Assembly: GCA_963721485.1 (NCBI GenBank)
Contig: CAVRJV010000006.1
Span: forward strand, 66,847 to 130,846
Length of the DNA stretch: 64,000 nucleotides
Direction: 5' to 3'
Source of the DNA: an uncultured delta proteobacterium
GTDB taxonomy: Bacteria; Desulfobacterota; Binatia; Binatales; Binataceae
The translations under genes were made by a program, and so were the position numbers. Numbering within the stretch: position 1 is the stretch's first letter; each line of letters begins with the position of its first letter. A model generated the notes under the pieces. It had not been told where the DNA came from and ran no database searches. It saw only the letters and a list, made by a program, of their open reading frames with translations. Below, piece after piece: positions 17,188 through 19,738 of this stretch.

Positions 17188-17220
17188 TGGCGGAGAGGGG
17201 GGATTCGAACCCCCGAGACC
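17188..17220 (-). repeat. 33-nt partial copy of the tRNA-Ser 3' end (CCA, acceptor and T-arm); distal att-like repeat of the islet
   Basis: tggcggagaggggggattcgaacccccgagacc is identical to 19647..19680 except for one G fewer in the G-run. Similarity stops exactly at ...gagacc on both copies. Confidence 0.75.
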
Positions 17221-17264
17221 GGTCTGATCTGAAAGCCGCGGCAATCTTACCGCCAGGAGTAAGT

Positions 17265-18833
17265 CTATGCCGCGTTCCTGTCTCGCACCCTGTCCATGAG
17301 CAGGCGAGTGACAATGCGCCTGACCTCCGTTTCTGACTTGTCTCCTAGCTGGCGGACGATGCGCAGGGGAAAGACTTTTTTGAGCAATGCCGGTTCGGAC
17401 CTGAGAGCGGCGGCGAGTTCATGGGTGACGAGCAGGTTAAGAGCCATACGGTTGATCGGACGCGCTTCCATTGCCGCCTTGATCACTGCGTGGTCGCGAT
17501 TGACGGAGGCAGTGACTGCTTCACGGATGAAATCCACGCGGCACAACGCCCCTTCCATCTCAGCATCGGATAGTGGCCGAATCTCCAACCGGGTGATGGC
17601 GGGGGCCTTGTCTTTGGGTCCATTCTCGCCTGGCTCGGGTGGTTTTTCCTCTTCAGGTCCAGCCCCGAGGCCTTGGGCCTCGGACAACTCGTGTTCCTCG
17701 CGCTGCTCAAGCATTCGTTCTTCCTCGAGGGCGGTATCGATATGAATGTGCGCGCGGGAGCCTGAGTTGAGCGCCGCCTCGAGTTGCAGGGCGATGTCTT
17801 GAAAGATGATCGTCTGTTGCGCCCGCTGCACTTGTACGAGCAGTGGCCGGATACGTCTGAACACCTCATCCATAAGCGCATCCCAAGCGGGCCGATCGCT
17901 GATTGCGTTCTTGGTAGTGGTGAGGAGCGGCTGCCATCCTTCGCCCAGTTGCAGCCAGCCGGTGACGCCGGCGCCGAGGAATTTCTCGCTGCCATCGCTA
18001 AGTCCGAAGCACTCCCGCGTTAACGCAATCACCCGCGGCCCAAAGCCTATCGCTATTCTGGATCGCTCAACTGGGAGGTCCTCGACCACACCGATCTCGC
18101 CATGCACGTTAAGCGCCCGATCGCCTGTTTCCACGACTGCATCGAAAGCGATCTTCCTGTCGGGGTCCTCCGGCAGGCTGATTGGTTCGGTAAGACGGCG
18201 TTTCTCTACCAGCTCGCCGCCCTTGATGGAGTGCCAATGGAGTTCCTTACCAAGACGTATAGCCGGGGCGTAAGTCTGTGAAAGGGAGCGCATAACGCCG
18301 GGCACCGTGCTGGGAGAGAAGCTCCTTTCTCGAGACAGATGCAGCGTGATCGAAGTTCCGTGTCGAGTCTCGAGAAGGTTTGCCGGTGTGTTGTGCGCTG
18401 TCGCCTTCAGCCAGCGATTACTCACAACCGGAAACACGTTGTCCTTCATGCAGCGCTGCCAGTCTACGGTATCGCTGCTGACCAACTCGTCGCGCATCGT
18501 CACAACTTCCACCTTGTCGGCCAGCCACAAAAGAGCGAAAGTACCGCCGCATCCATAGATGCCGATATCGCCCGCCACCTGCCCGATGGTGTTGCCCAAC
18601 TGAAACAATCGCCCTACCGCCTCCATGCCCTGGCCATCGTCGCGTACGACGAGGGTGCGATGGGTAATGTCGTAAGTGATCTGTACAAAGTTGGCGTTCC
18701 CTCTCCCTGGGCCGAAGCTGTTGTCGACCAACTCGGATAACGCCCCCGCTGCAGTCCAGTCCTGATTACGCATGCCGAGAAGGAACGCGGGCTTCGGCGT
18801 GCAGTCGAACTCGGACCTAGTTGGATTGGTCAT
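17265..18833 (-). CDS. GHKL-superfamily (HATPase_c_3 / MORC-MutL-like) ATPase, 522 aa
   Basis: Bergerat-fold motifs are in order: SELVDNSFG (ExxxN), VRDDGQGM (DxGxG) and GIYGCGG (G-rich lid). A middle domain follows, then an acidic low-complexity linker (EEERMLEQREEHELSEAQGLGAGPEEEKPPEPGENGPKD) and a C-terminal domain of about 100 aa. AGGGAGA lies upstream of the ATG. The reading frame is intact. Confidence 0.75.
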   Translation of the reverse strand: MTNPTRSEFDCTPKPAFLLGMRNQDWTAAGALSELVDNSFGPGRGNANFVQITYDITHRTLVVRDDGQGMEAVGRLFQLGNTIGQVAGDIGIYGCGGTFALLWLADKVEVVTMRDELVSSDTVDWQRCMKDNVFPVVSNRWLKATAHNTPANLLETRHGTSITLHLSRERSFSPSTVPGVMRSLSQTYAPAIRLGKELHWHSIKGGELVEKRRLTEPISLPEDPDRKIAFDAVVETGDRALNVHGEIGVVEDLPVERSRIAIGFGPRVIALTRECFGLSDGSEKFLGAGVTGWLQLGEGWQPLLTTTKNAISDRPAWDALMDEVFRRIRPLLVQVQRAQQTIIFQDIALQLEAALNSGSRAHIHIDTALEEERMLEQREEHELSEAQGLGAGPEEEKPPEPGENGPKDKAPAITRLEIRPLSDAEMEGALCRVDFIREAVTASVNRDHAVIKAAMEARPINRMALNLLVTHELAAALRSEPALLKKVFPLRIVRQLGDKSETEVRRIVTRLLMDRVRDRNAA

Positions 18834-19008
18834 TTTGGGTCTCCCTGGGTGCGGATTACCTGAGCGACTAGGAAATCATCGGCCCTAATCCCGTTCTCAC
18901 TTCACGAATGATTTCGTTGCAATTGAAATCGCTGAAAGTCCGGCTCGATTGCGGTCTGACGGCGCTCCCTCCGAAACAGACTTGCCGACTCCATCTTCTC
19001 AACCGGAT

Positions 19009-19398
19009 CTAAATCTGTGCCTTTCGTTTCTTGATAAGTCGCGTAGTGGGTTTAGCAATGTCGAACCGACGCTTCCGAGCGTGGCAGTTCCTGCTGTGCG
19101 TATGGGAACCACAGCCGAGTCGATTCCAAGATGACAATTGCGCTTGACCCAGAGTTGTCAGCGCGAGGTGCCGTTTTTCGCAGGGTTTGAAGCCCAGCAC
19201 CGGCCCCGGGCAGTCGACCCATTCGATGAGCCCCCGCTTCAGCATGCGGCCCATCACGGCGCGAGCTTGCTGGTCCCAGCGCGTCTGCCCCTTGGGAGTG
19301 TTCTCGCGGAGATTGAAATAGAGCTGGAGCTCATCGGGCCAGACTCCGAAGAAATCGCGGGCGCCTGCAAGAAATACGAGGAAGTCATGGTTGGTCAT
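19009..19398 (-). CDS. Small winged-helix (Mrr_N-like) protein with a basic C-terminal tail, 129 aa
   Basis: GQTRWDQQARAVMGRMLKRGLIEWV...HLALTTLGQAQL resembles the Mrr N-terminal wHTH pattern (conserved W/R helix, then 'GLIE', then a wing). The tail is HARKRRFDIAKPTTRLIKKRKAQI. There is no obvious SD, and an AT-rich block sits directly upstream. The call rests on pattern only. Confidence 0.5.
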   Translation of the reverse strand: MTNHDFLVFLAGARDFFGVWPDELQLYFNLRENTPKGQTRWDQQARAVMGRMLKRGLIEWVDCPGPVLGFKPCEKRHLALTTLGQAQLSSWNRLGCGSHTHSRNCHARKRRFDIAKPTTRLIKKRKAQI

Positions 19399-19573
19399 TT
19401 CGCAATCTATATATGTATATGTATACCAACGTCAAGAGCGTACTGTTCCCGCAGAGTCGGAACGAGAGATTGCAATTCCGAAAGAGGAAAGGGCACCGGC
19501 TCGATCCGCAGCAGAGAGAATCGGGCATAAAACCAGCAGCCGATTCCAAATACTCAGCTTCTCCGGTGCCCTC

Positions 19574-19603
19574 AGATTAAGAAAGAGCGCGAGTATGCGC
19601 TCT
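19574..19603 (-). terminator. Terminator-like hairpin downstream of tRNA-Ser
   Basis: The minus strand reads AGAGCGC-auacuc-GCGCUCU followed by UUCUUAAUCU, about 44 nt after the tRNA 3' end. It lies inside the islet side of the att repeat. Confidence 0.4.
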
Positions 19604-19646
19604 ATTTCCCAGGTTTCTGGCGGGGACGCAAAAATCGCCGACTGAA

Positions 19647-19738
19647 TGGCGGAGAGGGGGGGATTCGAACCCCCGAGACCCTTTCGAGTCTACACGCGTT
19701 CCAGGCGTGCGCCTTAAACCGGGCTCGGCCACCTCTCC
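19647..19738 (-). tRNA. tRNA-Ser (anticodon GGA), class II with long variable arm and encoded CCA
   Basis: The reverse complement reads GGAGAGGTGGCCGAGCCCGGTTTAAGGCGCACGCCTGGAACGCGTGTAGACTCGAAAGGGTCTCGGGGGTTCGAATCCCCCCCTCTCCGCCA. The acceptor GGAGAGG pairs with CCTCTCC. The anticodon stem is CACGC/GCGTG with loop CTGGAAC. The T-arm is GGGGG-TTCGAAT-CCCCC. Confidence 0.9.

Follow-up and report, generated by a model that had tools for sequence, protein, structure and literature searches.

We analysed a small islet at the 3′ end of a tRNA-Ser(GGA) gene in a 64,000-nt stretch of DNA from an uncultured delta proteobacterium of the Binataceae (GenBank assembly GCA_963721485.1, contig CAVRJV010000006.1, positions 66,847 to 130,846), which we refer to as the window. 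The islet carries two genes, encoding a 522-aa ATPase of the GHKL superfamily and a 129-aa winged-helix protein, and is bounded by a direct duplication of the tRNA 3′ end of the attachment-site (att) type. The islet is of a known kind, a tRNA-island remnant resembling a cis-mobilisable element (CIME), and its ATPase belongs to an unstudied family. The features of the islet are listed below in window coordinates.

17188..17220, minus strand: distal att repeat, a 33-nt copy of the tRNA 3′ end in direct orientation
17226..19549, minus strand: two-gene cassette, 2.33 kb, 94.5% identical to metagenome contig L018, where its flanks are different
17265-18833, minus strand: ATPase gene, 522 aa
17265..17600, minus strand: ATPase residues 412-522 and stop, conserved alpha/beta C-terminal domain, unassigned
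17601..17894, minus strand: ATPase residues 314-411, long helix (314-356) and acidic linker predicted to be disordered (AlphaFold 2, AF2)
17895..18833, minus strand: ATPase residues 1-313, GHKL (Bergerat) domain and S5-fold transducer (PF13589, motifs, Foldseek)
18834..19008, minus strand: 175-nt spacer; contains the inverted repeat GATTTC-N9-GAAATC and, ahead of the ATPase start, the Shine-Dalgarno sequence GGGAGA
19009-19398, minus strand: small winged-helix gene, 129 aa
19399..19441, minus strand: AT-rich region upstream of the small gene, with nucleotide homology to contig L068 from 19441 and to L069 from 19428
19550..19646, minus strand: tRNA-proximal arm, 97 nt, not shared with L018 (blastn boundary with L018 at 19549)
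19647..19680, minus strand: proximal att core, the 34-nt tRNA 3′ end (CCA, acceptor 3′ strand and whole T-arm)
19647..19738, minus strand: tRNA-Ser(GGA), intact, the sole tRNA of the window (ARAGORN; Rfam RF00005, 55 bits)

Att repeats and layout of the islet

The proximal att core at 19647-19680 reads TGGCGGAGAGGGGGGGATTCGAACCCCCGAGACC, and its counterpart lies on the far side of the islet. A preliminary description of this DNA, made from the letters alone, had reported a direct copy of the tRNA 3′ end at 17188-17220 that stops sharply at ...GAGACC, and similarity indeed ends at that point in both copies. The match is not perfect: the distal run of G is six long and that of the tRNA seven, which is the sole difference between the two. 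Two exact copies of the 24-nt core are present in the window, and none in 100 dinucleotide-preserving shuffles.

Between the att copies lie 2,426 bp with two intact genes. Read from the distal repeat, the order is 44 nt, the 522-aa open reading frame (ORF), 175 nt, the 129-aa ORF, 248 nt and the tRNA, and these ORF coordinates bear out the spacings and gene lengths given earlier. The remaining ORFs of the islet are antisense shadows of the two genes. None of the islet ORFs is recombinase-like, and a phmmer search with four tyrosine-integrase queries, which has limited sensitivity, matched neither an integrase nor a donor element with a matching integrase in the 64-kb window; the absence of an integrase or recombinase from the islet, already remarked upon, thus stands. 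The G+C content of the islet (57.5%) stands apart from the right flank (64%) only and equals that of the left flank (57.6%).

An intact tRNA with a direct repeat of its 3′ part around foreign DNA is the arrangement of a site-specific tRNA island. The segment from the T-loop to the 3′ end is a known sublocation class for tRNA-targeting integrases. The integrase gene that such islands have next to the tRNA end is missing here, and only two genes are present. CIMEs are att-flanked derivatives of integrative and conjugative elements (ICEs) or prophages without recombination or transfer genes, and the islet likewise keeps its att sites and has no recombination or transfer genes. It resembles CIMEs and tRNA islands in its intact tRNA, distal direct repeat, missing integrase and small accessory cargo, and is unlike a typical CIME in that sister copies of its cassette have different distal flanks. 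Remnants flanked by att sites are frequent at tRNA genes, and there is nothing unusual about the islet as such; it adds an example that holds two genes only.

A terminator-like hairpin followed by a T tract was seen at 19584-19603 on the minus strand, within the 97-nt arm and 44 nt past the tRNA-Ser 3′ end. The element may provide the terminator of tRNA-Ser.

Domains and structure of the ATPase

The N-terminal part of the ATPase matches PF13589 (HATPase_c_3) with 39.6 bits against a cut-off of 25. All four motifs of the GHKL superfamily (I-IV: ExxxN, DxGxG, G-rich lid and (G)T) are present, and the residues concerned are invariant in an alignment of 32 homologues (E34/D37/N38, D65xGxG69, G91..G94xG96G97T98 and G159T160). 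The complete set of Bergerat motifs noted from the sequence is confirmed. Also invariant across the 32 homologues is K308, in a TTK motif.

A profile search of PDB sequences placed MORC2, MORC3 and MORC4 on top, followed by HtpG. The AF2 model of the ATPase has a pLDDT of 82 and a pTM of 0.73, and Foldseek with this model returned Hsp90/TRAP1, SMCHD1 and MORC2/3/4 at E-values of 1e-14 to 1e-12. The alignments with SMCHD1 and MORC2/3/4 run over ~365-440 columns (E ~1e-13 to 1e-12) and span both GHKL and S5 domains; MORC2/3/4 have the lowest rmsd among the best matches. An S5 transducer with the conserved lysine that marks the MORC/paraMORC radiation and reaches into the ATP site there is thus seen in the predicted structure and in the invariant K308. 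By this predicted architecture the ATPase belongs to the MORC/paraMORC radiation, in agreement with the MORC-like label it was first given.

The model also upholds the acidic linker and the unassigned C-terminal domain described earlier. The linker is predicted to be disordered over residues ~357-411, with a pLDDT below 50 across most of residues 360-411. The C-terminal domain (412-520) is conserved in the family, carries the motifs LC..., VNxDH and RPxNR, and has no sequence match in Pfam or PDB. We considered whether VNxDH might be the DQHAxxE nuclease motif of MutL. This reading was dropped because the acidic positions are variable among homologues, and the window sequence has Ala at the E position. 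The preliminary description had advised looking for a hidden nuclease fold in either protein; no nuclease signature was detected in the ATPase, and AF2 and Foldseek give a generic winged helix for the small protein. Scans of the ATPase with PADLOC, NCBIfam and PHROGs gave only sub-threshold matches to the GHKL motifs (MzaB, BbrUII and HtpG).

Two distant relatives of the ATPase, P0235 (443 aa) and P0240 (465 aa), carry the helix and C-terminal module (query residues 290-509) behind HNH_repeat or HTH_50 N-termini, perhaps through a fusion made in gene calling. Because it is found behind these other N-termini, the helix and C-terminal module may be an independent unit, separable from the ATPase and used for dimerisation or partner binding.

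Relatives of the cassette and history of the island

In the metagenome contig L018, 2,334 bases align with window 17226-19549 and span both genes, the spacer and the region upstream of the small gene; the ATPase encoded there is 95% identical to that of the islet. L018 contains neither the 97-nt arm nor the tRNA-Ser. Its cassette is flanked by a gene for a vWA lipoprotein and an XRE/ImmA pair on one side and a gene for a repeat protein on the other. No att-like or target-site repeats were found around the L018 cassette, and no tRNA fragments in L018 or L001. The L018 breakpoint is no more than 5 nt away from the att core, a position that suggests a terminus prone to recombination.

The regulator pair lies upstream of the cassette (L018:278-1770) and consists of an XRE-type helix-turn-helix (HTH) gene followed by an ImmA/IrrE (Peptidase_M78) gene. 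Such pairs are typical of prophages and ICEs, and its presence hints that this copy of the cassette is inside a larger mobile element.

The closest relative of the ATPase is on the Logan contig L001, which has 95.7% nucleotide identity and diverges 6 nt past the ATPase stop. Beyond that point L001 continues with a 127-aa ORF and then a convergent type IV restriction gene of the Mrr type (L001:2051-2617, minus strand; Mrr_cat; PADLOC mREase_IV, E 4e-49), which is truncated where the contig ends.

At least four soil metagenomes contain the intact islet at 95-97% identity. Its junction with the tRNA, where the 97-nt arm meets the tRNA 3′ end, was seen in each of the four soil runs X1, X2, X3 and X5. 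On the distal side, X1 and X2 continue into the L018-type flank from 17223/17224, and X5 into yet another sequence from 17245. The window-type distal junction was not seen in the soil runs, where the source strain is ~2x deep. In X1, the depths of the tRNA-linked contig (6.5) and of a second variant (4.1) add up roughly to that of the distal contig (11.8), which suggests that the tRNA-linked population of X1 itself has the L018-type distal flank.

Across these sequences the cassette has at least three distal continuations (the att repeat of the window, the L018 type and the X5 type) and a proximal variant that breaks at 19464. The pattern suggests that a two-gene core, itself constant, is surrounded by a recombination hotspot. 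Because its flanks differ in L018, L001 and X1/X2, the cassette is mosaic and mobile. The arrangement in the window, with the distal att repeat 44 nt past the ATPase stop, is one of several, and the islet probably represents a longer island that has been shortened.

The 175-nt spacer between the two genes is conserved in L018 and unrelated to the spacer of L069, a contig on which a homologue of the small gene precedes a different gene (see below). We regard the spacer as a putative functional region.

Selection on the two genes

We estimated dN/dS by the Nei-Gojobori method among the window, L018 and L001, which differ from one another by a dS of ~0.07-0.12. The values are as follows.

Whole ATPase: 0.18-0.24
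ATPase GHKL-S5 part: 0.12-0.16
ATPase linker (residues 356-411): 0.5-0.7
ATPase C-terminal domain: 0.16-0.24
Small gene: 0.13 (against L018)

Both genes are under purifying selection, and the low dN/dS therefore indicates that they are maintained by selection outside any intact phage.

Neighbourhoods of the ATPase family

A word-indexed search found ATPase homologues in 93 clusters at 38-50% identity, and an exhaustive profile search gave 175 representatives clustered at 50% identity, with E-values up to 1e-30. About 60 loci were collected for a survey of synteny. By tblastn and a hidden Markov model (HMM) of the small protein, the small gene adjoins the ATPase only in L018 and near-identical soil strains and is absent at ~55 other ATPase loci. 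The pair as such is confined to relatives at least 94% identical (L018 and the soil metagenomes), and shared descent therefore explains its co-occurrence. The preliminary description had put the two genes forward as a candidate module, to be recognised by homologues that stay together; since they are not co-localised outside L018 and near-identical strains, a conserved two-gene module is not supported.

Other genes take the upstream position elsewhere. About half of the loci with upstream sequence have a co-directional gene of ~110-320 aa that ends -34 to +26 nt from the ATPase start, and about one third have a divergent gene 80-220 nt away. Of 29 upstream genes, six match DUF3102, three a winged HTH (wHTH; HTH_24, HTH_23 and MarR_2) and three Arc, the last all divergent, and one is a terminase GpA gene, at locus L019. 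We considered whether these partners are one family. Comparison by hhalign connects only the DUF3102-type groups (A-G at 99.9%, C-G at 80%), and this was rejected. What survives is a weaker version, in which the ATPase usually has a DNA-binding gene of one of several unrelated families immediately upstream.

On most long contigs the ATPase is found in a phage early operon and not in a defence island. At locus P0063 it follows a Cro-like gene in a prophage and is followed by Sak4-like AAA_24, SNF2 and methylase genes. At P0064 it lies amid short early genes near RecT, and at P0066 it stands between a DUF3102 gene before it and Sipho_Gp157 and ERF genes after it. The contig of P0067 also holds tape-measure genes, and at P0020 the ATPase adjoins an FRG-domain gene and an integrase. 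Relatives were found on 11 IMG/VR viral contigs. Records of the plasmid collection contained no homologue, and among species-representative genomes a single true homologue was detected, in a metagenome-assembled genome of Planctomycetota. Members of the ATPase family are chiefly temperate-phage early-operon genes located beside a DNA-binding gene.

Among 50,697 records of cultured phages, only Mycobacterium phage Bobby carries a homologue, gp96. Its gene starts 3 nt past that of gp95, an HTH protein with a ParB-N-like start (MK524516.1, 60712-63027; L073:4149-6464); both genes are annotated without a function, and the immunity repressor and a cro-like gene are located shortly upstream of them. 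By tblastn, gp96 is 23.7% identical to the islet ATPase over 67% of the query. The best BFVD match of the ATPase model, A0A481VXV4 (494 aa, E 4.7e-30, full length), is very probably gp96 itself. The literature that we searched contained no paper or annotation on this ATPase family or on its pairing with a DNA-binding gene.

The small winged-helix protein and its nuclease partner

The small protein has no match in Pfam (E up to 1), PADLOC, NCBIfam or PHROGs. Its model (pLDDT 79) has a winged-helix core of three helices and two strands, followed by a Cys/His-rich stretch and a basic tail. Foldseek returned PadR, MarR and the SSV1 F-93 wHTH protein with probabilities up to 0.99 and E-values of at least 0.01, which supports a generic winged helix of the PadR/MarR type as predicted fold. 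The winged helix and basic tail described earlier are therefore retained. The more specific likeness to Mrr_N (PF14338) is not, given the lack of a Pfam match and a fold that is only generic. Fourteen homologues were found, which share an invariant NLRENTP..Q.RWDQQAR.

In all four distinct clusters of homologues that could be placed on contigs (60-78% identity), the gene directly after the small gene encodes a protein of the phospholipase D (PLD) type. The survey of homologue pairs suggested by the preliminary description thus failed to find the islet pair conserved and led to a different partner of the small gene, in defence or mobile islands. The four pairs are located as follows.

L063:10001-12436
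L066:1806-4245
L068:3866-6345
L069:887-3525

The PLD partners are 680-710 aa long, carry an NgoFVII-type PLD domain and PF27394, and are 29-84% identical to each other. The loci also carry type I CRISPR-Cas, ArdC, SSB, integrase, HigB, Fic, GIY-YIG, PemK, GmrSD and EVE genes and are defence or mobile islands. For the pair of small gene and PLD gene, PADLOC and NCBIfam give only a weak match to the PLD motif of ZacB. This pair is better conserved than that of the islet, and as a candidate for a two-gene defence module not yet described, wHTH plus PLD/PF27394 nuclease is the cleaner of the two.

At the nucleotide level, the window is homologous to these loci only across the small gene and the 30-43 nt that precede it. 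The upstream part, 19399..19441, is probably the promoter or operator of the small gene. No remnant of a PLD gene was found between the two islet genes or elsewhere in the window.

Comparison with known systems

The MORC and paraMORC families have a neighbourhood of superfamily II helicase, DNA methylase and restriction-fold or HNH nuclease genes, and paraMORCs sit in restriction-modification (R-M) operons (Iyer, Abhiman & Aravind 2008; PMC2292703). Like them, the islet ATPase has a GHKL domain with all ATP-binding motifs, an S5 domain with the lysine and a family-specific C-terminal extension, and its family is sporadic, laterally mobile and found in hotspots. Unlike in the MORC/paraMORC families, the helicase, methylase and nuclease neighbourhood is missing in the window and at the phage and island loci, and only L001 has Mrr; the partner of this family is a small DNA-binding protein and its home is the early operon of temperate phages. 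Shedu type I-D (VcSduA, paraMORC3) is a GHKL ATPase fused to a DUF4263 PD-(D/E)xK nuclease with a proven anti-phage role (PMC12137116). It shares with the islet ATPase a GHKL N-terminus encoded on a mobile island and is a precedent for GHKL domains that gate defence effectors, whereas the 522-aa ATPase has no match to DUF4263, Shedu or any other nuclease in Pfam or PADLOC.

As to other named anti-phage systems, no model in PADLOC-DB 2.0.0 matched either protein above noise, and the earlier remark that the pair corresponds to none of them holds in PADLOC, NCBIfam and PHROGs scans. The nearest is MzaB of the MZA system, which matches only ATPase residues 20-74 (E 0.013 in PADLOC; E 0.0069 in NCBIfam, with 14.8 bits against a cut-off of 850), and the islet lacks the MzaACDE neighbours of that system.

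Bobby gp95-gp96 very probably offers a full-length structural homologue of the ATPase, very divergent in sequence and located inside an intact phage. RIIA is a phage GHKL-like ATPase that counters prophage-encoded exclusion, and RIIA proteins of the phage T4 type match the islet ATPase at the level of the fold (E 1e-10 to 1e-8, ~350-530 aligned columns). Unlike the islet ATPase, they are 620-1050 aa long, membrane-associated and paired with RIIB, and there is no sequence-level relationship. The controller (C) proteins of R-M systems are XRE-type HTH proteins. The small-protein family is like them in that the gene for a small wHTH protein immediately precedes a nuclease gene (the PLD partner) in the same orientation, and unlike them in that it has a PadR/MarR-like winged-helix fold followed by a basic tail rich in Cys and His.

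Interpretation and alternatives

The explanation that we favour, with a probability of about 0.6 for the whole of it, is that the islet is a tRNA-island remnant with mosaic cargo, whose ATPase acts in conflicts between mobile elements. The island would have entered by tyrosine-integrase recombination in the T-loop-to-3′-end segment of tRNA-Ser. The integrase gene would have been lost from the element or never present, so that the islet would be either a deletion remnant that lost all but two genes or a cis-mobilisable mini-island that relies on an integrase in trans. Its cargo would be a mosaic of two accessory genes that move independently. The ATPase would dimerise on ATP as a clamp, like MORC, Hsp90 and MutL, and a DNA-binding partner would bring it to DNA or control its expression. 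By analogy with its position before PLD nucleases and with R-M controllers, the small protein would control transcription of the gene that follows. The ATPase would act in exclusion, defence or counter-defence rather than in housekeeping, and we infer a possible defence role of the islet from its context. The paraMORCs of R-M operons, VcSduA and phage RIIA are precedents for GHKL ATPases in such conflicts.

Several observations weigh against this explanation. The L018 cassette has no att repeats. In eight soil runs, in which the source strain is only ~2x deep, we saw no excision junction or empty site, and no joint that skips 17221-19680. The upstream partners of the ATPase are heterogeneous, and a DNA-binding domain is recognisable at the Pfam level in only about half of them. 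The two islet genes are separated by 175 nt, in contrast to the tight coupling at phage loci. No effector domain (nuclease, TIR or other) is detectable in the ATPase, and the early-operon position of its relatives would be just as compatible with a function in phage DNA replication, recombination or host takeover.

This last point underlies the main rival, in which the ATPase serves the early DNA transactions of the phage itself, that is, its replication, recombination or host takeover, and was stranded at a tRNA att site in an inert prophage remnant, useless to the cell. Five long contexts are phage early operons marked by Cro/CI, ERF, RecT, Sak4-like AAA_24, Sipho_Gp157 or tape-measure genes, and the viral contigs and the terminase GpA gene upstream of the ATPase in L019 agree with them; att-flanked leftovers are typical of decayed prophages. 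Against it, the gene has a dN/dS of 0.18-0.24 and no frame break in three variants that differ at ~11% of synonymous sites, and it stays intact in several soil populations without other phage genes. The gene upstream is a nuclease-associated wHTH gene and not a phage early gene, and in L001 the ATPase is beside a restriction gene. We consider an inert remnant unlikely. We think it even less probable that wHTH and GHKL ATPase form a dedicated, self-contained two-gene anti-phage system on a mini-island. The two genes do travel as one 2.33-kb cassette in the window, L018 and several soil metagenomes, both are under purifying selection, the nearest relative abuts a type IV restriction gene, the small-protein family resides in defence islands, and the ATPase family often has a DNA-binding neighbour. 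Shared descent accounts for co-occurrence that is seen only at 94% identity or more. The small gene is missing from ~55 other ATPase loci and is paired with a PLD nuclease in four of four clusters, PADLOC offers no more than a 55-residue GHKL-motif match to MzaB (E 0.013), and 175 nt separate the genes. What had been flagged as a two-gene defence module is for the most part a chance product of mosaic assembly. That the distal repeat matches by chance or is left from a duplicated tRNA gene, with both islet genes ordinary chromosomal ones, is barely credible. Although the islet shares the G+C content of the left flank and has no integrase, a 33/34-nt direct match that includes the T-arm and stops precisely at the 3′ terminus of the tRNA has no chance expectation, both gene families are found on phages, islands and mobile elements, and the cassette flanks differ in L018, L001 and X5.

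If the ATPase is, as we favour, a DNA clamp in mobile-element conflicts, it would connect the MORC silencers of eukaryotes with a phage-borne system that is ancestor-like, and provide a tractable model for that connection. The main value of the analysis lies in this ATPase family, with its conserved full-length architecture and its recurrent place right after the lysis-lysogeny switch, and Bobby gp95-gp96 is its culturable representative. A more far-reaching proposal, which we hold to be doubtful, is that a DNA-binding protein (DUF3102, wHTH, ParB-like or Arc) and a ~500-aa MORC-like GHKL-S5 ATPase with an acidic linker and a novel C-terminal domain make up a widespread, undescribed two-component module of temperate phages and islands. 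In it the adaptor would load an ATP-driven clamp onto DNA that silences or excludes competing DNA, and the islet would hold a domesticated copy placed under a regulator taken from elsewhere. Such a module would be a prokaryotic, effector-less counterpart of eukaryotic MORC silencing.

Flanking genes

Many flanking genes of the window are split across frames or fused (13877-16094, 12378-12824, 19855-20664 and 38958-41114), and the breaks are indeed present in this sequence. The frame-broken genes include a hybrid histidine kinase, a receiver domain, a nitronate-monooxygenase-like gene and a monooxygenase/glyoxalase/acetate-kinase read-through. Long G/C homopolymers were considered as the site of these breaks and rejected, as the breaks lie elsewhere. 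Several 1-nt indels of the window at 20203-20446 are missing from related short-read contigs, and at least some of the frame breaks may be assembly errors, with real decay as the alternative. The contrast between intact islet genes and frameshifted neighbours, drawn in the preliminary description, is therefore weak evidence, even if both islet genes are indeed intact and under purifying selection. The left flank consists of ordinary chromosomal genes, among which we identified by eye CsbD-like, BON-domain and histidine-kinase genes.

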